Part shown: positions 2,551 through 16,569 of the stretch, in pieces
Layout: each line of letters begins with the position of its first letter
Numbering within the stretch: position 1 is the first letter of the stretch
Virus record (IMG/VR): IMGVR_UViG_3300011334_000366
Coordinates: 1 to 28,991 of that record
DNA from: a virus
Taxonomy: Duplodnaviria; Caudoviricetes
Direction: 5' to 3' (one strand)
Length of the DNA stretch: 28,991 bases
Notes under the pieces: model-generated
What the model saw: only the letters and a program-made list of their open reading frames with translations
The model's database searches: none
What the model was told of the DNA's origin: nothing
Made by a program: the position numbers and the translations under genes

Positions 2551-2865
2551 TCATAAATGCAAACAATTGGCAACTAGCTTACTGTTCTGTGTTTGCGTGA
2601 TGAACGACTTCACTTCTGCGATGGCATCAGCATCCTCGTGCTTCGACCATAAGTAATCGCTGCCCCATTGAGCTTTGCGGTCCTCATATTCTGCCCACAG
2701 GACAGCGAGCATTTTATCTCTCGCCGCCAGTTGTCGGGCGATGTCACTCTTAGCGTGCAGTGATTCAGATGTCATCGCGCAGACGTGGCGGATGTAGTGC
2801 TCCCCGAGGCTTTCGGAGTCTTGGGCCGGATACACAGAACCAGCGGCTGGAGAGGAACGGCTCAT
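2551..2865 (-). CDS. Hypothetical cassette protein (104 aa)
   Basis: ATG lies in the attC4 loop. The core HYIRHVCAMTSESLHAKSDIARQLAARD resembles a small phage hypothetical family (recalled, not searched). Confidence 0.7.
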   Translation of the reverse strand: MSRSSPAAGSVYPAQDSESLGEHYIRHVCAMTSESLHAKSDIARQLAARDKMLAVLWAEYEDRKAQWGSDYLWSKHEDADAIAEVKSFITQTQNSKLVANCLHL

Positions 2866-2919
2866 AGCGTTTTGTTGGTGTTTTCGAGGTCGAGCGTTCG
2901 CCGTCCCTCATCCTTACTG
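2585..2919 (+). mobile_element. Integron-like gene cassette inserted at the end of the amidase gene
   Basis: Starts at G^TTCTGTGT (2584-2592), the exact reverse complement of ACACAGAAC (2832-2840) at the attC4 R''. Ends at G^TTATAC (2919). Confidence 0.7.
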
Positions 2920-2925
2920 TTATAC
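2834..2925 (+). mobile_element. Integron attC-like site (attC4)
   Basis: ACAGAAC-CAGCGGCT-[G]-GAG-[A]-GGA-[A]-CGGC ... GCCG-TCC-CTC-ATCCTTACT(9 nt)-GTTATAC. Confidence 0.7.
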
Positions 2926-3495
2926 AGCGCCCTTAAAGCCACAAGCCTCGCGCAGTTTAACCATTGGAAAAGCTGGCCCTGGATCATTCTTTCGGTTAGG
3001 CGCGCAGTCTTCATGACCGATGATGTCATCGAGCTTGTAGTGAGCTACAAGCGCCTTTGCCACCTCTTCCAACGCTGCGATTTGCGCCGGTGGGTATGCT
3101 TCCCACTTTTGCACCGGCCCACCGTTTTTGTGCGCGGCCTTGACCAATGGTAGCTTGCTCCACCGTTTTGCCAGCGCTGCATTGTCACCGGCATTAGCCA
3201 GCTCGATGCCAATAGAGCAGGCGTTTAGACCATCAAAGCCTTTCCACTTGCTCTTGCCTGCGTGACCACACGTTCGGTTAAACGCACGGCATTGATACAC
3301 CTTGCCGTCTCGATCAATGACGATGTGAGCGCTCGCACCATTTGCCTCAAGTGAGCGCCAAAAATTGATGCTGCTGATTGCTGTCGCGCCAGATGTGAAA
3401 TGGATGACGAGAAACCGACGCACCGGCATTGGAGCACCGCCAGGAATCAGCTCGTAGTTTGCGCGGTTGAGGAAATGTTTATCAGTGATTGTCAT
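2920..3495 (-). CDS. N-acetylmuramoyl-L-alanine amidase (Amidase_2/AmpD-like endolysin)
   Basis: Zn-amidase motifs VIHFT, ASAHIVIDRDG, HAGKS, SIGIEL and GHED..PNRKNDPG. Start set at ATG 3495. Confidence 0.92.
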   Translation of the reverse strand: MTITDKHFLNRANYELIPGGAPMPVRRFLVIHFTSGATAISSINFWRSLEANGASAHIVIDRDGKVYQCRAFNRTCGHAGKSKWKGFDGLNACSIGIELANAGDNAALAKRWSKLPLVKAAHKNGGPVQKWEAYPPAQIAALEEVAKALVAHYKLDDIIGHEDCAPNRKNDPGPAFPMVKLREACGFKGAV

Positions 3496-3610
3496 TTTGA
3501 TTTTGCTCCTGTTCACGTTCCGCCGCCCTGTCGCAGCTTATAAATAGCGCAATAACGCCGAGCGCACCGACTGCAAGGAATGCGAATACAATGCCGAAAA
3601 AAGTCATCAT
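3482..3610 (-). CDS. Small membrane protein (42 aa), possibly lysis-associated
   Basis: MMTFFGIVFAFLAVGALGVIALFISC is a single hydrophobic segment; ATGA overlap with the upstream gene. Confidence 0.6.
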   Translation of the reverse strand: MMTFFGIVFAFLAVGALGVIALFISCDRAAEREQEQNQNDNH

Positions 3611-4368
3611 GGTCGGTCGTCGTCCAGCTTGTTGTGGTGTTGCGCGTCCATGAGAATATTCACACACGCGCCGATGTGGGCGAGATGCGACTGCCCGCTT
3701 TCCTTGTCGGTGTCTTCCCGCTCATGCCAAGCGGCTAAGTGGCGATGGATTGCAGAGATGTAAGTCGAGGCACACACGCGAGTCTTGCGCCAGTTCCAAG
3801 GTCCATACTTCTTGTTACCGAGTCCATGCACCCAAGCGACTGCGCGGAGAGCAACGGGAGGCAGCAGCCACATCGGCGCTTTAGTCTTGCCAATCTCGCC
3901 CTTCGGATCGGTGCCGATTGGAGCGACTGTTGATGCTGGCTCGCGATTGAGCAGGTCGCGGCATGCTTGGCCGATTGCCCCGCCCCATTGTGCCAACTCC
4001 TCAAGACTGCGGTCCGGCGTTGGCGGAACAAGCGCAGGCGTGCCGCTTGGCACCTCCTCAAAATGCACAGGAATCCCGCGCCATTCGGCAAGCGCGACCT
4101 CTGCCGATGCGCCTTTGCTTTGCTCCCATCCTGCCAGCGCGTAGAGCGCGTCAACGTGCATCACTGCGTCAATGTCACGACGCATTGCATCGCGTAAAAA
4201 CTCCGGCGTGACGATGCCGTCATCAGGATCAAAACCAAGATCACGATCCATGTCGGCGGGGCTAATCACATTCCAGTCGCGTTCCAGGTAGTCGCGCGCA
4301 GCGTCAAAGGCTGGAAAGTTGAACTCTGGATAGCCCGTCATCGGGCCAGCAATGTAGATCGAGCGCAT
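3607..4368 (-). CDS. Fusion of DUF4406 (nucleoside deoxyribosyltransferase-like) and DUF5664-type dATP/dGTP diphosphohydrolase domains
   Basis: N-terminus IYIAGPMTG..FNFPAF..GWEQSKGASAE; C-terminus GNKKYGPWNWRK..HLAAW..DKESGQSHLAH; Pro-rich linker between them. Confidence 0.82.
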   Translation of the reverse strand: MRSIYIAGPMTGYPEFNFPAFDAARDYLERDWNVISPADMDRDLGFDPDDGIVTPEFLRDAMRRDIDAVMHVDALYALAGWEQSKGASAEVALAEWRGIPVHFEEVPSGTPALVPPTPDRSLEELAQWGGAIGQACRDLLNREPASTVAPIGTDPKGEIGKTKAPMWLLPPVALRAVAWVHGLGNKKYGPWNWRKTRVCASTYISAIHRHLAAWHEREDTDKESGQSHLAHIGACVNILMDAQHHNKLDDDRP

Positions 4369-8004: not shown

Positions 8005-11000
8005 TTACTCGCTCAGACGCTTTTGGATTTTGCGAGCTTCGCGCAACACGTTAGCGCCGACATCGACAGCGCCACCAGCAGGGCCAATGGCGGCAGACAT
8101 GCCAGCGCCTAAAGCCGTAGAAGATGAATCGAGCGCATCCATGAAATCGTCGGCATCGTCTGGATTGAAAAGCTCATCCATGTTCTTGCCGCCTTTAAGC
8201 AGGTCATTTGCAACTTTACTTGCAAGGTCATCGGCTGGAAACACGCGAAGGCCAAGCAATCCACGGCCTATCTTGTCAGCTAGTCGGCCAAACACAAACA
8301 GTCCATTGATGGGGCCGAGAGCAAGCGCAAGCGTCCACTGTTCACGACTGAGTTCGCGATCACGATCTTCATCGTCACCAAGCAGCGAGGCTATTACGAC
8401 CGCCATCACCTGCGACACGCCAGCTTGCACAAAATGAGCCACAAATGCCCGCTGAATATCCAGCGTCTTGTTCTTCGATTTGCCCGTTGCCAGCCTGCGA
8501 ATTGCCATCAGCTCAATTGCCAGCGCCTTCCGTTGGTCAGAGACAAACATCGACATCGACTTCATAAACGGATTGCCAGACCGTTCACTGAGCGACCGAG
8601 CGTAAACGTCGGAAGGTTGCGCTGAGGTAGCGATCATTTTCTCTACTCGTGCAATGGCTTTGGCATCAGCGATCTCTGGCGTCATTTGCGAATTGTCGCG
8701 CATGTATCCACGACGGTAGTAGTCAAACGAAATGGCAGCACCTAACGCCGTCCATCCGCCGTCAACCATACTCATCGGCATCATGCCCGCTTGCATGGCA
8801 ACGATGGCTTGCGAGCCTGTCATGCCTGCGCCCTGCATTGCCACGCGAGATTCAGCCGAGAATCCTGCTTCAATGCGGCGTCTAATGATGTCAGATGACC
8901 ACATTGCCGAGACTTCCTTGGCAAACGACTGCGGCTCTATAAATGCGCGAGCCATGCCCATCATGTAGTTATGAGCAGGCACGTCAGCAATCAGCGGATT
9001 TAACAGCGCCGGTGTCTGCTTAATGATAGGCGAAAGGCGGAAGGCCAAGCCTTTGTATGAGCGGTATTGCATGAACCAGCGCCAGACTCGCGAGATGTTT
9101 ACAAGCTCGCTGGCTGAGTTCGTGCCGTTTTTCTCAATTGTTTTGACGTCATCTTTTAGCCTTTGCAGATAGCCCTCACTTTTCTTTTGGCGAATAGCAA
9201 CTGCGGTGTCCTTGTCCAGCAAGATAGCCTTCATGTCGCGCATGAGTTCAGCGTGCGAAACCCAGTGCGATACATTTTCCCAATGCGCCAGGAACACGGC
9301 TAGCGCGTCCATCTCAACAAGTGAAGCCGTCGTGTTGACGCGAGCCTTTACAAAGCCAGCAGCAAGTCCACTGTTCATGTCAGAGCCATCAATATCCATA
9401 ATGTCTCCGCCCGTGCTCATATTGCGCCGATGGATTGGCGAATAGTTCTTAATGCGTGGGAGTGGTGCGTTAAAGAGCTTGCGGTAAATTGGATCAATCA
9501 TGCCAGCCGCATCTTGATAGCTGCCAGAAATCCAGCGGCCCAAAGCCTTAGCCTCTGGCGATAGGAATTCTTCAAGCTGTTTGAAGCTATCGGCATCCCA
9601 ACCGTCGCGCTCCATTTGTTTACGGCTAGCATCCTGCATCGACCAGAGCCACCATTGAATACCTTGCGTCTCGCTCATTGTGCGTTCAACCGGCGTGCCT
9701 GCGTTGACCACCTTTTCAATAGTCACCGTGCTCTTGCGTGCGTTTGCGGCAAACTCTTCAAGCGCTGCATCTACTTCGTATTGCTCAAGCCCTGCCGTCT
9801 CCGCGCTCATAGTGCCGTCATTGAGCTTTGTCAGCGTCTCAATATCGAGCTTCACCTCCTCTTTTTTCACTCGGCGCGTGGAGATTCCAGACTGCTTAAC
9901 CTTTTGCAATTCAGCAATACCGCGAGCGTGAGCAAATTTGCTGTCAGAGTTAAAGATGATCGAAAGCGCATCCTTTTTCTGAGCTTCAACCAGCCGCTTA
10001 ATGTCAGTCGAAAGGTTGGCCGCATTGATAATCTTTTCCGCAAAGTAATTCAGAATCTTAGAGTCTTCGCCAAAGATCAGTTCAAGCCGCTGGATTGTAG
10101 TCCATAGCGCCTCGCTCAACATTCCGCGCAGATTAAGCAGCGCACGCTTAAAGACGCCCTTGTTCAAGTTCGTGATGTTGTCGGCAACGTCAGGATTCAA
10201 CTCGTCACCGGCAAGGATAGACGATTGCGCCGATTGACGCATCTCGGTAAGCATTTCTTTGCGCGCTTCGTCAATGATCTTCTTGCCGAGCTTGCCAGCT
10301 TCGATGGTGTCATTAAGCCAGTTAAAAGCAGACTCGCGGGAAGCTGAGTCTTTGTCGCTATACATGTCAAACAAGCGAGCGATGCCAAGTTTCGTTAGCG
10401 CATCCTGCACCTCGTTGGCGTCTTCTGATTCCTCAGCCTTCTTCTCAAGCGCGGCCTGCCTGTCGGATTGCTCTTCGATGCCCAGCTTAATGAACTCGGC
10501 AGCGTAATCGACCTGCTCCGTAGCTGTGGAGATGATCTTTCCAGTGATGCGCCCGCTTGCGTCCTTCTGCGATTTGAAGCGCTTTAGAAGCTTGTCGGTA
10601 GCCTCGCCATACTGATCCTTGAGATGCTTCTCCAGCAACACCTGGCCGCGCTCAAGCTGCTTCTGCAGCACCTTCAACCGTGCCGACTCCGATGCCTTGC
10701 GAGCCAGCGCAACAAATCCGCCGATCTTTCCACGGATCTCCTGCGGGAACATGGCAATGATAGCTTCCAGGGTAATGAGATCGCGCACCAGCGATTCGCG
10801 CGGCGACCAGTCTTCTTTCTGCATTGCGTCTGTCTCGTTGCGCCATGCTTGCGCTTCTTTACGAGCTTGCTCAAACGCTGCTCTTTCAACAGCCTTGACC
10901 GCATCTTCAGCCTTAGCATAGCCAGCCTTTGCCGTGCGATGGGATTTAATGGATGACTCCAAAGCCGCCCACATTTCGGAGGCGTAATCAAAGCCGAGAT

Positions 11001-14000
11001 TGTTTGCCATCACGTCAGGCATAATGCCACCAGCCCTTGCGTAAAACTGAGGAGGCAACCATCCAGCATCGTCATACTGATCTTTAATGCCGCGCCCTTC
11101 ACGTTCAGCCGTAGCCTTCGACATGAGCTTCCCGTTGTCGTTGAGCATCCTTGCAATCAACGGGTCATCCTGAAGCGTGCCAACGCCTTCAGAATACGCC
11201 AGCAGCGTTTCAGTCGTGAGCTTATCCATACCCTCATGGGTAAGCTCAACCTCGCGTTGCGCCTGCCGCATAGCCTGCTCCTTGTCCAATGACTTCACCG
11301 TGCGCTTCTCGCTAATCGGCCTGATCTTATTGCCTTGCGGTGTCCAGCGCTCGTTACTCCACTTGTCAGCAAGCTTGGCAAACTGGCGAATTACGCGAGA
11401 TTTGACCTTAAGCGCGCCGACTGGGTTCTCTGCAAACTGCTTCTCTACTTGGTCGCTGAGTTCGTTTAGGTTGCGGACGGGTGAGATACTGAAGGATTGA
11501 CCTGCAAATTCTGGCGTTTCGCCATTTGCCCAACGTGTCAGCAATCCGTTTACTTTGCCCCATTTGCCGCCATTTAACTGCATTGATGAACGGTTTCTAG
11601 CATCGTCCTCAAGGTCAATATAAGCACCGTCAGCAGCCACAACAATAGATTTAAGCACAGACGCTTGAGCCGCCGTAATTTTAGCTCGACTGTGCATTGA
11701 AATCATGCCGCTTCTAGCATCAACACGAACAGCACCAAGGCGAAGAAAACCGACCATGCGTTCCCAATTCTCTTGGTAATCAGGCATATCCTGCCATTCA
11801 ATTTCGCGATGATCAACGCCTCGTTGATCCTTCATCCAATCGCGCCCACTGACAACCCTAAAAACCAAGTCTGGCCCTTGTTTAAAATCTCCAACATCAG
11901 CGCGCCCCGTAAAATCAAGCATCGTTCCATCTGGCAAAACGTAGCCAGCCTCATAAATTGAGCGCGTGATACCATGGCGTTTTTTAACTTCTGCAAAAAT
12001 GTCAGCGGCAGGCTTTCCGTTGATGGATGGAGCAACCTTATTTTCTGGCGTGATGCGCTCTTCTTCTGAGACGCGTGAGATGCTAAACCGAATGTCAGGC
12101 GTTGCCTCGTTAAACCGTTGAGATAGCGGGATGATGTTGCCTGCATCGTCATAGGTTATTGGGTCGGCGGATTTGATTTGGTCTGGCTTAAAGACAGCAT
12201 AATGATTTGATGGCCGATTATTTAGATTAACGGCATCATCTAAATTCTTGAACAAAACGCCAGTTTTTCCAGCACGTTGAGCTTTGAGAAGCTGATTTGT
12301 GATACCCTTATCAGTATCTCCATCACTCAATTCTTGTGGAGTTTTGCCTTTAGCATCAAACTCTAAAAAGTCACCCTTTAGATAAGTGGAAACTACTTTA
12401 GCAGATTCACGGCGTTTAAGAGCAGATTCATAATTGTCTAAGCTTTCAGCCTCTTGTATAGCAGCATCATAACCGTCCCAATCGCCACGCTTTTCAGCCA
12501 ATTCAGCTTTTTTAAGCGCATCTTTTACTGGGCCTTCTTCTGCTGCATAAACTGCATAAGCCTTTGCGGTCGCTTCGTCATCCGTAAAGAAAAAAGCAAT
12601 CTTTGCGCTCTTGGCGTCTGTGCTAGAACCTCCTCTTTTTTTATCAAAGATAGAAAACTCTGCACCAGTTCCGTGATAAAGCTTTGGAGAGTTATAACCA
12701 GCACTCATTGCCAATTGATCAACCAACCTCTGAGCCGTCTCAGTATCACCAGCCTTAGCAGCAGCGAGATACTCAGCGTCTTGCGCGGGCGAGATGGAGA
12801 AGGTCGGGACTGAATCCACCTTCTGCCCATTCTTCTCAAGAATCTTCACAAGGTTCTCGTCGAAGATGACATAGTTGCTCGTGCCATCACCTGCTGCGCG
12901 ACTGCCGCCATCGAGGTAACGGATGCCAGGGATACCGATGGATGCTAAATGTTCAGATGCTGCTTTTGCGATTTCTTCCGGCGTGGCCTTGCCTTGCAAT
13001 CCTTTAACCAGTTTGTAAAAGCCAGCGCCACTTCCATTAGCTTCCTCCAACTGCATTTCTATCGCTGCATCCATGTTAATAGGCGAGCGATTGAAGCCAA
13101 GCCTCACGGCTTCTCTTCGCTGCCTTTCCTCAAGCGCTAAAAGTTTCTCGCGTGTCGTTGTCGCAAGCGTAGCCATTAATTCCGAGGCAGCGTCTCTAAC
13201 CTTCTCGTTCTGCTCTGAAAGCGGCTTGTCCCAATCAAGGAACTCATCCTCGTCTGGCAGTAGCTCGACGGTGTAGAGATTGCCGCCCGTTTCTGTTTTA
13301 ATAAAATTGCCGTAATCTTTTTCTACTTGTCTGGCAAATAATACACTAGGAGTAGGAGGATCCTTGGACATCATGTCGCCATAAGTAGCGCCAAGAAATG
13401 CTTTCCTAACGCTGTCTCCCTGCGATCCGTATTGTGTATTACCCGCTACAGATTCAAGCCTTAACTGAAGCCTCGCTGCTTCATCGTTGTTCGGATAAAG
13501 CTCTGTTAGAGTTTTGCCGTTAAACCCTATGCGAAACTCTTTCTGTAATTTGCCTCTGTAATCATCAGCAACCTTAAAGCTCTTTGCAAAGTAAAGACCC
13601 CAGCCAAAAGCTTGCGCGCCTTCACCTGTGCCAATATTTGCCATGCGAAAGCGATCTATTTCATGCGGCGTGCCGTGGTAGACTTCAATGGAGAACGTAG
13701 TCGGGCCAACGAGTTGCGCCCCGTCTGGCATCTCGGTGACGTTGGATGTGTCAGCAGGTTGTGCGCGGCTTGTGCTAAACGCCATATTCCCAGCATCAAT
13801 CACCGCCTGCGTTTCCTCGTCGATGCCAAGCATTGCCCTGCCCTCATCAATAGCTTGCGACTCCATTTGCTTTACCTCGTCAATGCCGAGGACTTTATTG
13901 ATAAAAGTGTCGTATTCCTCACCGAGCTTGCCCTCGTCGCGAGCTTTGGTGATAGCGTCCACCGTGCCAAATACGCCCTTAAGGTAGGCGGTAAACGCCT

Positions 14001-16569
14001 TGATTGCAGCCAGAATGCTTTTCAGTGCGCTGGCCTCTTCTTGGGTATTAGCGCCCATGACAGATGCTTCGATGGCGCGAGAGATTGAGCCTGGCTTCAT
14101 GCCTGTGGCGCGGCCTTGTCGATCACGTCCAAGCACGTCACGAATGACCATCTCAGACACGGTTTCGCGCAGCATGGTTTCATTGCCTTGACCGTTCGCT
14201 AGCGTGCGCAGATTGGCGATGAATTGCGCCTCTTCGGCGTTCAGTGCCGTCACGCCTTCAAATGCTGGCAGCAATGCGCCCATCGCCCTGCGTGTCTCCT
14301 GATCTGAGAACGTGCCGTTTGTCATGCCGAGCCTCCAAGTCGATTCAAAGCTCTCATGCAGGAAAGTGATGACCTGCGGCTGGCCTTCAGACTGCGACTT
14401 GTAGAGATTCATCTGGCGGACAATCTCCTTTGCGCCATCAGCCACGCGCATCGGAAAGACCTCATTGGAGCCGTTGATGTGAGCAAAGACGCCCTGCGTG
14501 CCTGTCTTAATGCCAGCGACTTCCGCCTCTGCGCGGACGGTTTCGAGAGCTTGAGGGCCAAGCTGACGTTGGGAGAGGATAGCGCCGCCAGCATCGCGAC
14601 GAGTAGCCACAACTCCAACCGCTTCAATATTAGACGCTTGAACAGTCTCGCCCGTAAGCACGGTTTCGGCCTGCTTGCCCTGCTCGTAATAGCCATCAAT
14701 CACGCTCACCAGCGTATCGGCTTCCTCTTGGCTTCCGACTTGGCGAAGATCAACCGCAATACGGCGAGCGGCTTCGGCAGATTCCACGGGAATGATCGTT
14801 CCTTCGCCGGTCGTCACCTGCCAGCCCGTAGGCGTGCGCGTGACGCTTGCGGTATATTCTGGCGAGGTTGTTTGCAATCCCTCGGCGCTCACTTGCTCTT
14901 TTTGCAGTCCCCTCAGACGTTCAGCCGCTTGCATCCTCTGCTCTGCCGTTGCTTTGACCTGCGCCACATTATCACCCTTAGCGTTAATCTTTGCCCAATC
15001 GCCGCGCATCGCATCCTCCGCCTCGCTCCATTTACCAGCGTTTGCCAGCTCGCTGATTTTAGCGGCGGATTCAGGCGAATACTGAGCAGCAATCAGCATG
15101 TCAGTCGAGCGTGCCATTTGACGGCCTGCGCGGAAGTCTGACAACTGACCAGTCCCAGCGCCCACAATTGCGAGCGGAAGGATGGTTGAAATCAATTCTG
15201 GCATATTCTGCGCAAACTCACCAAGGAAGCCGTCCCAGTCAGAGCCTGGAATGTCGCTGTTTAACGCACTTGCAATGCTTTGAACTGCCATCGGAGTGAT
15301 GCCTTGCGCGAACTCTTCGCCGACTTCCGTTGCCGTGCCGATTGCCGCCCGTGTCGTAAACATAGAAAGCGCGCCCGTTGCGCTAAAGATTGGCTGAGTA
15401 AACGCACGTTTTAGATTTGGAAGCCTGCCAAATAGGAAGCGATCAGATGCAATTTCTGTAATTGCCTGAATTGGTGCAGAGATAGTAGCAATAGTGTTCG
15501 CGGCATCGCGTGACATCGTTGGATTACTCCGACGAATCTCGTTGTAAGTTGAACGCTGAAAGCTGCCAAGCGTAACAGCCGCGCCCACATAGGGAATAAA
15601 CGATCCGATTGTCATTGGGATGTTTTGAACGGCTCCGCTAATATTCATTCCAGCAAACTCAACGGCCTTTAGCTTTGCAAGATTTCCAATCGAAATTTCA
15701 CGGACATCATCGCGCAAATCCATGTAATCGCCAACTGCTGAAGATGCCGCCAAAACTTCGCCGCTTTGAGCATCTGTAAGAAATAGATTGTTCTTTGCCG
15801 ATGCCTCAATGTCAGACATGGCTACACCAAGAACCGAGCTTGCCGCTGAATCTAAATAACTGCCCAAAAAACGATCAAACTCTTTTGCTAACCTTTGAAC
15901 TGACGATGCGGCAGCAAAATCACTGCCAGCCGCTTGATTTGAAATTGCCTCAAGAACATAGGGGCGATCCTCTTTTGGCACCTTGATTAACTCGCTAGCC
16001 ATCGCGCCCCAGTTCATGCCATCTGGCGCGGTGTCGATATTGCGCGCCATGTCCGTCACGGTTTTAATTGTATTGCGATACGGCGCAACCTTTGCGGCCA
16101 TTTCGTCGTGAGCAGCGCGCGCAAGGCCGAGATAGTTAGTCATTCTGCCTGGAAGCATAGAGCCTGCATTTGCCGTCTCCACTTCGCGAAACTTGCCGAG
16201 CCACGATTCACCGCGAGCGGCAGCAATTCGGGATGCGTTTGCAATTTTGTCTTGCGCCTGATAATCGGCGGCAATCATTCCAAACATGTCGTTATCTGAA
16301 ACATTCGATGCCGCTTGATTCTTAAAGTAGCCACGAGCTATGCCATCCTTAATGCCTTGCCATTCTGGTGACGCAGGATTGACGTGACGATTCAAAGCAA
16401 CGCCAGCCCATCCAGCAACAGCGGAAGACGTGAGAAACGCCTCCTTATCCTCAACCGCTCCGCCAAATGTATTATCATCTAGCAACGCCTTAGCGCCCCC
16501 AAACTCTTGATCTAAAAACGCAGATCGTAAACGCTTGCTGCGTTCTTGTGAGATTTCTTCGGGTGTCAT
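8005..16569 (-). CDS. Giant internal virion/ejection protein (gp16 position); polyvalent protein with two ADP-ribosyltransferase-like modules
   Basis: 2854 aa, third of the ejection-protein trio. ART-like motifs YHGTPH..GWGLYFA and YHGTG..AFFFTDD..QIKSAD; an AGYVLPDG..DHREI module; a degenerate zincin-like LHESFE. Confidence 0.82.
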   Translation of the reverse strand: MTPEEISQERSKRLRSAFLDQEFGGAKALLDDNTFGGAVEDKEAFLTSSAVAGWAGVALNRHVNPASPEWQGIKDGIARGYFKNQAASNVSDNDMFGMIAADYQAQDKIANASRIAAARGESWLGKFREVETANAGSMLPGRMTNYLGLARAAHDEMAAKVAPYRNTIKTVTDMARNIDTAPDGMNWGAMASELIKVPKEDRPYVLEAISNQAAGSDFAAASSVQRLAKEFDRFLGSYLDSAASSVLGVAMSDIEASAKNNLFLTDAQSGEVLAASSAVGDYMDLRDDVREISIGNLAKLKAVEFAGMNISGAVQNIPMTIGSFIPYVGAAVTLGSFQRSTYNEIRRSNPTMSRDAANTIATISAPIQAITEIASDRFLFGRLPNLKRAFTQPIFSATGALSMFTTRAAIGTATEVGEEFAQGITPMAVQSIASALNSDIPGSDWDGFLGEFAQNMPELISTILPLAIVGAGTGQLSDFRAGRQMARSTDMLIAAQYSPESAAKISELANAGKWSEAEDAMRGDWAKINAKGDNVAQVKATAEQRMQAAERLRGLQKEQVSAEGLQTTSPEYTASVTRTPTGWQVTTGEGTIIPVESAEAARRIAVDLRQVGSQEEADTLVSVIDGYYEQGKQAETVLTGETVQASNIEAVGVVATRRDAGGAILSQRQLGPQALETVRAEAEVAGIKTGTQGVFAHINGSNEVFPMRVADGAKEIVRQMNLYKSQSEGQPQVITFLHESFESTWRLGMTNGTFSDQETRRAMGALLPAFEGVTALNAEEAQFIANLRTLANGQGNETMLRETVSEMVIRDVLGRDRQGRATGMKPGSISRAIEASVMGANTQEEASALKSILAAIKAFTAYLKGVFGTVDAITKARDEGKLGEEYDTFINKVLGIDEVKQMESQAIDEGRAMLGIDEETQAVIDAGNMAFSTSRAQPADTSNVTEMPDGAQLVGPTTFSIEVYHGTPHEIDRFRMANIGTGEGAQAFGWGLYFAKSFKVADDYRGKLQKEFRIGFNGKTLTELYPNNDEAARLQLRLESVAGNTQYGSQGDSVRKAFLGATYGDMMSKDPPTPSVLFARQVEKDYGNFIKTETGGNLYTVELLPDEDEFLDWDKPLSEQNEKVRDAASELMATLATTTREKLLALEERQRREAVRLGFNRSPINMDAAIEMQLEEANGSGAGFYKLVKGLQGKATPEEIAKAASEHLASIGIPGIRYLDGGSRAAGDGTSNYVIFDENLVKILEKNGQKVDSVPTFSISPAQDAEYLAAAKAGDTETAQRLVDQLAMSAGYNSPKLYHGTGAEFSIFDKKRGGSSTDAKSAKIAFFFTDDEATAKAYAVYAAEEGPVKDALKKAELAEKRGDWDGYDAAIQEAESLDNYESALKRRESAKVVSTYLKGDFLEFDAKGKTPQELSDGDTDKGITNQLLKAQRAGKTGVLFKNLDDAVNLNNRPSNHYAVFKPDQIKSADPITYDDAGNIIPLSQRFNEATPDIRFSISRVSEEERITPENKVAPSINGKPAADIFAEVKKRHGITRSIYEAGYVLPDGTMLDFTGRADVGDFKQGPDLVFRVVSGRDWMKDQRGVDHREIEWQDMPDYQENWERMVGFLRLGAVRVDARSGMISMHSRAKITAAQASVLKSIVVAADGAYIDLEDDARNRSSMQLNGGKWGKVNGLLTRWANGETPEFAGQSFSISPVRNLNELSDQVEKQFAENPVGALKVKSRVIRQFAKLADKWSNERWTPQGNKIRPISEKRTVKSLDKEQAMRQAQREVELTHEGMDKLTTETLLAYSEGVGTLQDDPLIARMLNDNGKLMSKATAEREGRGIKDQYDDAGWLPPQFYARAGGIMPDVMANNLGFDYASEMWAALESSIKSHRTAKAGYAKAEDAVKAVERAAFEQARKEAQAWRNETDAMQKEDWSPRESLVRDLITLEAIIAMFPQEIRGKIGGFVALARKASESARLKVLQKQLERGQVLLEKHLKDQYGEATDKLLKRFKSQKDASGRITGKIISTATEQVDYAAEFIKLGIEEQSDRQAALEKKAEESEDANEVQDALTKLGIARLFDMYSDKDSASRESAFNWLNDTIEAGKLGKKIIDEARKEMLTEMRQSAQSSILAGDELNPDVADNITNLNKGVFKRALLNLRGMLSEALWTTIQRLELIFGEDSKILNYFAEKIINAANLSTDIKRLVEAQKKDALSIIFNSDSKFAHARGIAELQKVKQSGISTRRVKKEEVKLDIETLTKLNDGTMSAETAGLEQYEVDAALEEFAANARKSTVTIEKVVNAGTPVERTMSETQGIQWWLWSMQDASRKQMERDGWDADSFKQLEEFLSPEAKALGRWISGSYQDAAGMIDPIYRKLFNAPLPRIKNYSPIHRRNMSTGGDIMDIDGSDMNSGLAAGFVKARVNTTASLVEMDALAVFLAHWENVSHWVSHAELMRDMKAILLDKDTAVAIRQKKSEGYLQRLKDDVKTIEKNGTNSASELVNISRVWRWFMQYRSYKGLAFRLSPIIKQTPALLNPLIADVPAHNYMMGMARAFIEPQSFAKEVSAMWSSDIIRRRIEAGFSAESRVAMQGAGMTGSQAIVAMQAGMMPMSMVDGGWTALGAAISFDYYRRGYMRDNSQMTPEIADAKAIARVEKMIATSAQPSDVYARSLSERSGNPFMKSMSMFVSDQRKALAIELMAIRRLATGKSKNKTLDIQRAFVAHFVQAGVSQVMAVVIASLLGDDEDRDRELSREQWTLALALGPINGLFVFGRLADKIGRGLLGLRVFPADDLASKVANDLLKGGKNMDELFNPDDADDFMDALDSSSTALGAGMSAAIGPAGGAVDVGANVLREARKIQKRLSE

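Follow-up and report, generated by a model that had tools for sequence, protein, structure and literature searches.

attC sites in phages without an integron integrase gene (intI) are already published, and IntI1 recombined five of the six phage attCs tested according to the sections of Qi et al. 2023 (PMC9892861) on which we draw. Those sections and the locus reported here have attC-bounded phage cassettes without intI in common. They differ in that the sections of Qi et al. 2023 (PMC9892861) considered require at least two attCs, present no empty and filled alleles and suggest illegitimate or homologous capture, and describe neither bottom-strand genes nor plain versions of the cargo. A second body of work, in the portion of the SALIN/attG study used here (bioRxiv 10.1101/2022.09.11.507474), characterizes attG hotspots by GWT at positions -1 to +2 plus CRGM at +6 to +9; our locus shares with the elements of that portion the single cassette, the lack of an integrase nearby and the G^WT crossover. 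The first making of integron cassettes is listed as an open gap in the part of a further source consulted (PMC12901181). Phage cassettes, SALINs and attG sites are therefore in print, and reversed genes partly so; our literature search, with the subscription literature mostly outside its reach, found no paper on bottom-strand phage cassette genes, natural attG allele series, or plain/cassette gene pairs.

Below, we describe the end of a phage endolysin gene that is a reused docking site, at which cassettes carrying small genes are probably inserted by an IntI supplied in trans.

The Phage Record and Its Likely Host

The window (the whole stretch of DNA analyzed, 28,991 nucleotides) is a 29-kb linear virus record, 76% complete, whose minus strand encodes podophage-type portal, capsid, tail and internal-virion proteins together with an amidase and a RecT-like protein (table 1). 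Of 401 Verrucomicrobiales genomes, 11 contain relatives of the amidase at 50-74% identity, from which we deduce that the host probably belongs to this order, with the provision that these matches could be prophages or binned virus contigs. An Rfam search of the window returned zero matches. Elsewhere in the record, a 2854-aa virion-type protein harbors an ART-PolyVal ADP-ribosyltransferase domain (8005-16569), and a DUF4406 (deoxyribosyltransferase-like) domain is fused to a dATP/dGTP diphosphohydrolase domain (3607-4368) in a gene adjoined by a metallophosphoesterase; this fusion gene was unmatched in the loci of the four close relatives presented below.

Table 1. Coordinates of the features at and around the docking site in the window.
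Feature	Position	Strand	Basis or remarks
attC array (separate) where the RecT-like gene ends; same polarity, toward the contig end	217..551	+	Sites score 12 and 13 of 13
104-aa cargo ORF, function unknown	2551..2865	- (attC bottom strand)	phrog_34533, E 1e-6; 31 homologues
Docking site, left half: L-box-like 7-mer 2572-2578 (AAC end in L024), then 5-bp spacer	2559..2584	+	Conserved in all alleles (alignment)
G^TT junction on the left, containing the R' of the cassette itself (complementary to R'')	2584..2590	+	Sequence match and allele comparison
Gene body delimited by the R boxes, 255 nt (85 codons)	2585..2839	-	Same length in L011, L012, L014, L015
Gene cassette, 335 bp: gene body and own attC	2585..2919	+ (top strand)	Exact-end absence in L024, L025; replaced in L001, L026; 335-nt skip in X11, X12
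attC site	2834..2925	+	R'' 2834-2840; extra-helical bases 2849, 2853, 2857; R' 2919-2925 supplied by target
Docking site, right half: amidase stop and CAGC at +6 to +9 (2925-2928)	2920..2928	+	Allele comparison; bioRxiv motif
N-acetylmuramoyl-L-alanine amidase (endolysin), intact	2920..3495	-	Pfam Amidase_2, E 4e-28; PHROG lysis families

A Mobile Cassette with an Allele Series at One Position

An earlier note on the window had proposed that a solo attC cassette was inserted precisely at the endolysin stop codon. The borders on which that proposal was built are as described: GTTCTGTGT (2584-2592) is the exact complement of ACACAGAAC (2832-2840), each in a single copy in the window (a rough composition estimate gives 0.0014 for the chance of such a 9-bp complement within 550 nt), GTTATAC at 2919-2925 includes the amidase stop (2920-2922), and the unit of the integron cassette type thus delimited measures 335 bp and leaves the amidase intact. 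Scans with the amidase retrieved 10 viral and 31 metagenome loci, possibly not independent samples, of which four were close (92-95%). The empty site that had been predicted is present in two of these, L024 and L025, with breakpoints exactly where they were expected. At the same G^TT, L001 bears a different, unrelated cassette of 345 bp, and L026 bears two unrelated cassettes in tandem (345 and 788 bp). When viral-contig DNA was scanned with the two site flanks, the contig of L001 was the sole match.

The expected empty form also appeared as an exact 335-nt skip in contigs of X11 and X12 (two of the eight runs examined), which belong to one study that is possibly the source of the window DNA. 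These contigs differ from the window at 18 of 233 letters and hence represent a sibling strain rather than a product of excision. The circle junction that had been predicted was unseen in the contigs of the eight runs (of 20 listed), a material unable to prove its absence. Gain or loss as a unit exactly at G^TT is therefore found across five alleles (the window, L001, L024, L025, and L026) plus the two run contigs, and the 335-bp unit is real and mobile. Three filled alleles with four different cassettes at one G^TT indicate that the docking site is reused and not a one-off; accordingly, the term solo holds for the single cassette of the window and fails for the site, which has received at least four different cassettes. 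Regarding the SALIN definition, the window locus has a single attC, with the other array 2.0 kb off, and L026 has two cassettes at the same site. A more distant locus, L028 (74% amidase), is also empty-like, which suggests that the empty state is ancestral; it keeps the left half of the site and lacks CAGC.

A gain or loss of the 335 bp by microhomology or slippage between 9-bp copies of CTTACTGTT, aided by the RecT-like protein and with no site-specific enzyme, seems to us highly improbable. The direct repeat is real, its copies lying at positions 2578 and 2913 only in the window, the joint of the sibling is compatible with any position within it, and a RecT-like gene is located 1 kb off. Nevertheless, the cassettes of L001 and L026 sit at the same base with only GTT common to their two junctions, which largely refutes slippage for insertion, and each insert possesses its own attC fold and matching R boxes; the repeat could explain the loss in the sibling but not the gains. 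The shorter CTTACT preceding both GTT junctions, pointed out in the earlier note, is a genuine duplication in the window and is dispensable for insertion, since all four close relatives have CTTCCT on the left and differing, unrelated attC spacers; CTTACT as an obligatory target duplication is thereby ruled out. The attC spacer of the window equals the left flank of the target, and the near-identical attC of L123 has a different spacer.

The docking site is indeed a second locus, about 2.0 kb from the separate array with attC sites at 217-306 and 446-551. This RecT-side array ends in GTG and not GTT (446-551), the RecT-like ORF reads into the attC, and a contig of run X13 continues the attC of 446-551 with different letters. 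Variation is also found beyond the docking site, where a promoter-side block with the first small genes (2233-2560) varies against L001, L024, L025, and L026, and in L024 and L025 short genes are split by a recurring GC-rich repeat that is not attC-like, constituting a second kind of variable region.

The attC Hairpin

The R'' and R' boxes are complementary in the circular form over the 9 bp mentioned above, with the conserved AAC/GTT; the R box is open in the free fold of the integrated form and closed in the circularized cassette, for which the folds reach -15.9 kcal/mol on the bottom strand and -14.3 kcal/mol on the top strand (with no shuffle control). A two-bulge attC score gave no separation from background, as 19 of 150 random AAC anchors attained its value of 6.5. 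If extra-helical bases are placed at the three positions 16, 20, and 24 from R'', 12 of the 13 pairs in the stem are of Watson-Crick type, and only three of the 896 AAC anchors on both strands of the window score 11 or above, these being the attC under study and the two array sites. This three-bulge pattern was added after inspection of the 2834-2925 site and is the same as that described for VCR2 and attCoxa2 in the part of the literature consulted (PMC5027507). The opposite strand scores 7 in this test, and the positions of the extra-helical bases identify the + strand as the top strand, which places the cargo gene on the bottom strand.

Compared with VCR2 and attCoxa2, as far as the excerpt used describes them (PMC5027507), the site of the window has in common the R''/R' boxes, spacers of 5-6 nt and bulges at 16/20/24 opposite the bottom-strand AAC, and differs in a first bulge that is C instead of G on the bottom strand, in one L-box mismatch and in being protein-coding. 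The attCs of L001 and of the first L026 cassette reach 13/13, with C and T bulges on the bottom strand. R'' and R' vary together in six of eight parsed members of the attC family of the window, and RNAalifold yielded zero compensatory pairs in seven family members chosen by a shared motif. The alignment of mixed attCs was poor, and the exact 21-nt attC arm used as query gave zero matches.

A Likely attG-Type Hotspot, or Possibly an attI-Like Platform

The empty site displays two attG motifs, GTT matching GWT and CAGC at +6 to +9 matching CRGM; the comparison covers these two, and the second accompanies 43 of 2018 GWT sites in the window. In the portion of the attG study considered (bioRxiv 10.1101/2022.09.11.507474), where a left-hand motif is also mentioned, the right-hand CRGM at +6 to +9 is the common element, and CAGC is the form occurring in the ybhO hotspot. 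CAGC is found at this position in the window and in all four close relatives. TAAC is the ending of 11 of the 51 amidase loci whose stop is visible; four of these are the close relatives with CAGC, and the other seven (four distinct sequences) lack CAGC and gave zero attC matches there. As this sets one clade against the rest, the link between CAGC and insertion is only suggestive. The other array of the window lacks the CRGM motif at its G^TG end. Taken at the level of motifs, the docking site likely acts as an attG-type hotspot (GTT and CAGC), possibly en route to an attI.

The left half of the site could alternatively mark a vestigial or captured attI, whose platform lost or never had intI and which is recognized through that half, the CAGC match being due to chance. 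We judge this unlikely. It would account for the conservation of the left half in all alleles and in L028, for the 7-mer box and 5-bp spacer preceding GTT (with the AAC end in L024; the 7-mer may act as an L box), and for the persistence of this half after insertion, including before the two tandem cassettes of L026. However, the site bears little likeness to the putative attI of host integrons or of the phages G006 and L012, and neither intI nor a remnant of it lies beside the site in the window record (76% complete). The conserved half also overlaps a promoter-like element, a possible cause of its conservation (a weak signal, 2 found vs 1.2 expected), and L028 retains the left half without CAGC and is empty. 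The attG-type reading also has its differences from the published cases, since in the portion of that study used (bioRxiv 10.1101/2022.09.11.507474) attG hotspots were mapped experimentally in E. coli, whereas the phage site is natural and was read from sequence; moreover, unlike the SALIN/attG elements described there (bioRxiv 10.1101/2022.09.11.507474), it is empty or filled by several cassettes, is fused to a stop codon and receives bottom-strand genes.

Possible Sources of the Integrase

A search for tyrosine recombinases (PF00589) gave zero matches both in the record of the window (76% complete) and in that of its closest relative, G001 (55% complete), and none flanks the site; intI beside the site, the mark of a complete integron, is likewise absent from both records, and the integrase can thus only be inferred. 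Evidence for a candidate enzyme comes from two directions. On the bacterial side, the attC arm of L001/L015 matched 58 genome loci, 16 of which were labelled Verrucomicrobiota; in 19 arm-matching loci examined, five tyrosine recombinases were scanned, and four were true IntI (TIGR02249 over the cut-off). Chromosomal integrons of Verrucomicrobiaceae (L073, L110, L117, and L118) share related attC arms and bulge patterns with the window and have a true IntI on their side; in contrast to the bottom-strand gene of the window cassette, their cassette genes lie on the top strand (14 of 17). The attC motif of the window occurs in one of 401 genomes of the host order, in a phage-like context, which leaves the action of a host enzyme on this attC a presumption.

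On the phage side, three of the ten phage records searched encode a tyrosine recombinase (G005, G006, and G007). The protein of G006 is a true IntI (TIGR02249, 352 bits vs a cut-off of 265), and the attC of this phage is the closest to that of the window (88% identical). In G006 (39,247 nt, CheckV 100%), the gene (L137:1195-2229) lies directly downstream of reversed cassettes, has a near-identical match in G007 and is accompanied by helicase, methylase and capsid genes; the best GenBank phage matches are below 44% identity. An IntI acting in trans, from the host or from a co-infecting phage, would fit these observations.

The hairpins might instead be served by a simpler, Xer-like recombinase, which we consider very unlikely. 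G005, a phage that shares the attC family of the window, does encode a non-IntI tyrosine recombinase about 9 kb from its cassette, but the bulge pattern is that of the classical attC, a true IntI is encoded beside the cassette run in the phage whose attC is closest, and the host loci with related arms adjoin true IntI.

In two phages, cassette runs end in a shared attI-like stretch (L137:1141-1195 and L012:3870-3925), followed by intI in G006 and by an unrelated 674-aa ORF in L012. This stretch encodes the tail found on the proteins P0006 and P0059, and the cargo gene therefore probably once sat at the attI-like site of L137/L012.

Cargo Gene and Reading Frame

Integron cassettes usually, though not obligatorily, carry a top-strand gene upstream of the attC, whereas the ORF of the window occupies the bottom strand and begins within the attC, with its ATG (2863-2865) in the variable loop; it reads through both R boxes, and the target site provides its final 10 residues and stop codon. 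Each of the three cassettes that adjoin the left half of the docking site finishes with one and the same tail, encoded by the site. An automatic survey placed the longest ORF on the bottom strand for 21 of 25 phage cassettes vs 3 of 17 host cassettes, counts that come from a set including three further sites without partner box and some mis-assigned rows (e.g., window 446 and L001). AAC was in frame in 16 of the 17 read-through ORFs of that survey, a bias for part of which TAA avoidance accounts.

Functional assignment of the cargo gave a Pfam ydhR match below the cut-off and zero ESM Atlas matches at 0.9 or above. GenBank phages match only the N-terminal half, at 37-55% identity, among the 15 of 31 records listed, and the distant relatives of this half are ordinary phage genes. 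On the host side, the gene was found neither in the 401 Verrucomicrobiales genomes nor in a GTDB scan. Together, the ordinary phage relatives and the lack of the gene in these bacterial genomes favor a phage origin, and the cargo is phage-type DNA, likely an accessory gene. Another cassette gene, of 247 aa in L026 (1188-1931), matches phrog_12600 (unknown function) and has a PPCQ motif. This motif is presumably reminiscent of cytosine methyltransferases.

These features can be arranged in a putative sequence of events. An IntI from the host, probably a member of the Verrucomicrobiales, or from a co-infecting phage would act in trans, and the folded bottom strand of a circular cassette would recombine with the double-stranded site, cut between A and C of AAC. 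On the coding strand this cut would fall just after TAA, which would spare the amidase and, with it, lysis. Since the bottom strand encodes the phage genes, transcription arriving from the lysis genes would read a cassette only if it is reversed. With a start codon from the attC loop and a tail and stop from the following site, all in one common frame, cassettes would be translatable wherever they are inserted.

Cassette and Plain Forms of the Cargo Gene

Homologues of the cargo had been expected to be flanked by attC-like arms, which is true of the close ones in other phages and not of a plain form that also exists. The gene was found at 86-89% in five viral loci (four distinct), and the body between the R boxes is 255 nt in all four, with some R boxes decayed and a poorly scoring upstream hairpin in L012. 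Identity between gene bodies is 85-98%, but over the 45 nt of attC adjoining R'' it is only 31-47% in nine of ten pairs (98% in the remaining pair, L014/L015). Conversely, L123 has an attC 88% identical to that of the window in front of an unrelated gene (21% identity), and all nine viral loci with the leader motif of the window run on into other sequences. Both ends were readable in 46 of the 61 proteins collected (two being those of the window itself): 34 are extended and show 12 leader prefixes and 29 distinct tails, with Asn at the R' position in 33, and 12 are plain forms starting at their own Met. The contrast between body and attC identities, the arrangement in L123 and the varied prefixes and tails indicate that gene body and attC body vary independently and switch at R''. 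Top-strand recombination may be the cause of this switching; IntI performs it at a low rate, as stated in the part of the source consulted (PMC5027507).

In related podophages, the loci L055-L062 have an 81-aa plain version flanked by genes of the head region, start and stop codons overlapping, and the attC search returned zero matches in these eight loci. The plain gene is optional there, as five other loci join the neighboring genes directly and one holds another small insert. Eight plain proteins (P0013-P0020, available as protein sequences only) are 85 aa, the length encoded by the 255-nt cassette body. A tree built from 41 cores, of which 22 were cassette-type, 12 plain and 7 distant and partial, was for the most part unresolved, needed three changes and gave no direction between plain and cassette forms. 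From these sequences, genesis of the cassette from a plain gene, domestication of a cassette, or recombination between the two forms are all possible. A strong attC (13/13; G009:C1:16921-17008) was observed in a complete phage bearing the plain gene form, and plain genes and cassettes therefore coexist in one genome.

A broader scheme, which we put forward tentatively as a possibility, would make phages a cassette factory, in which ordinary genes gain R boxes at their first and last codons, attC bodies are swapped at R'' by top-strand recombination, whatever the gene, and docking occurs at a stop-fused attG that turns into a proto-attI. Under such a scheme, the attC would replace the native start and stop of the gene, and the plain and cassette forms of the cargo would be a snapshot of cassette genesis before and after.

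Implications

Two properties give this locus its interest. The site is natural, comes with a series of alleles and has a short motif that can be tested, attG hotspots having been defined in E. coli assays, and its cargo is one gene in plain and cassette form with borders matching to the codon. If the proposed route is true, lytic-type phages would rely on integron enzymes borrowed from elsewhere to try out accessory genes where these do no harm, and new cassettes may originate from phage genes.
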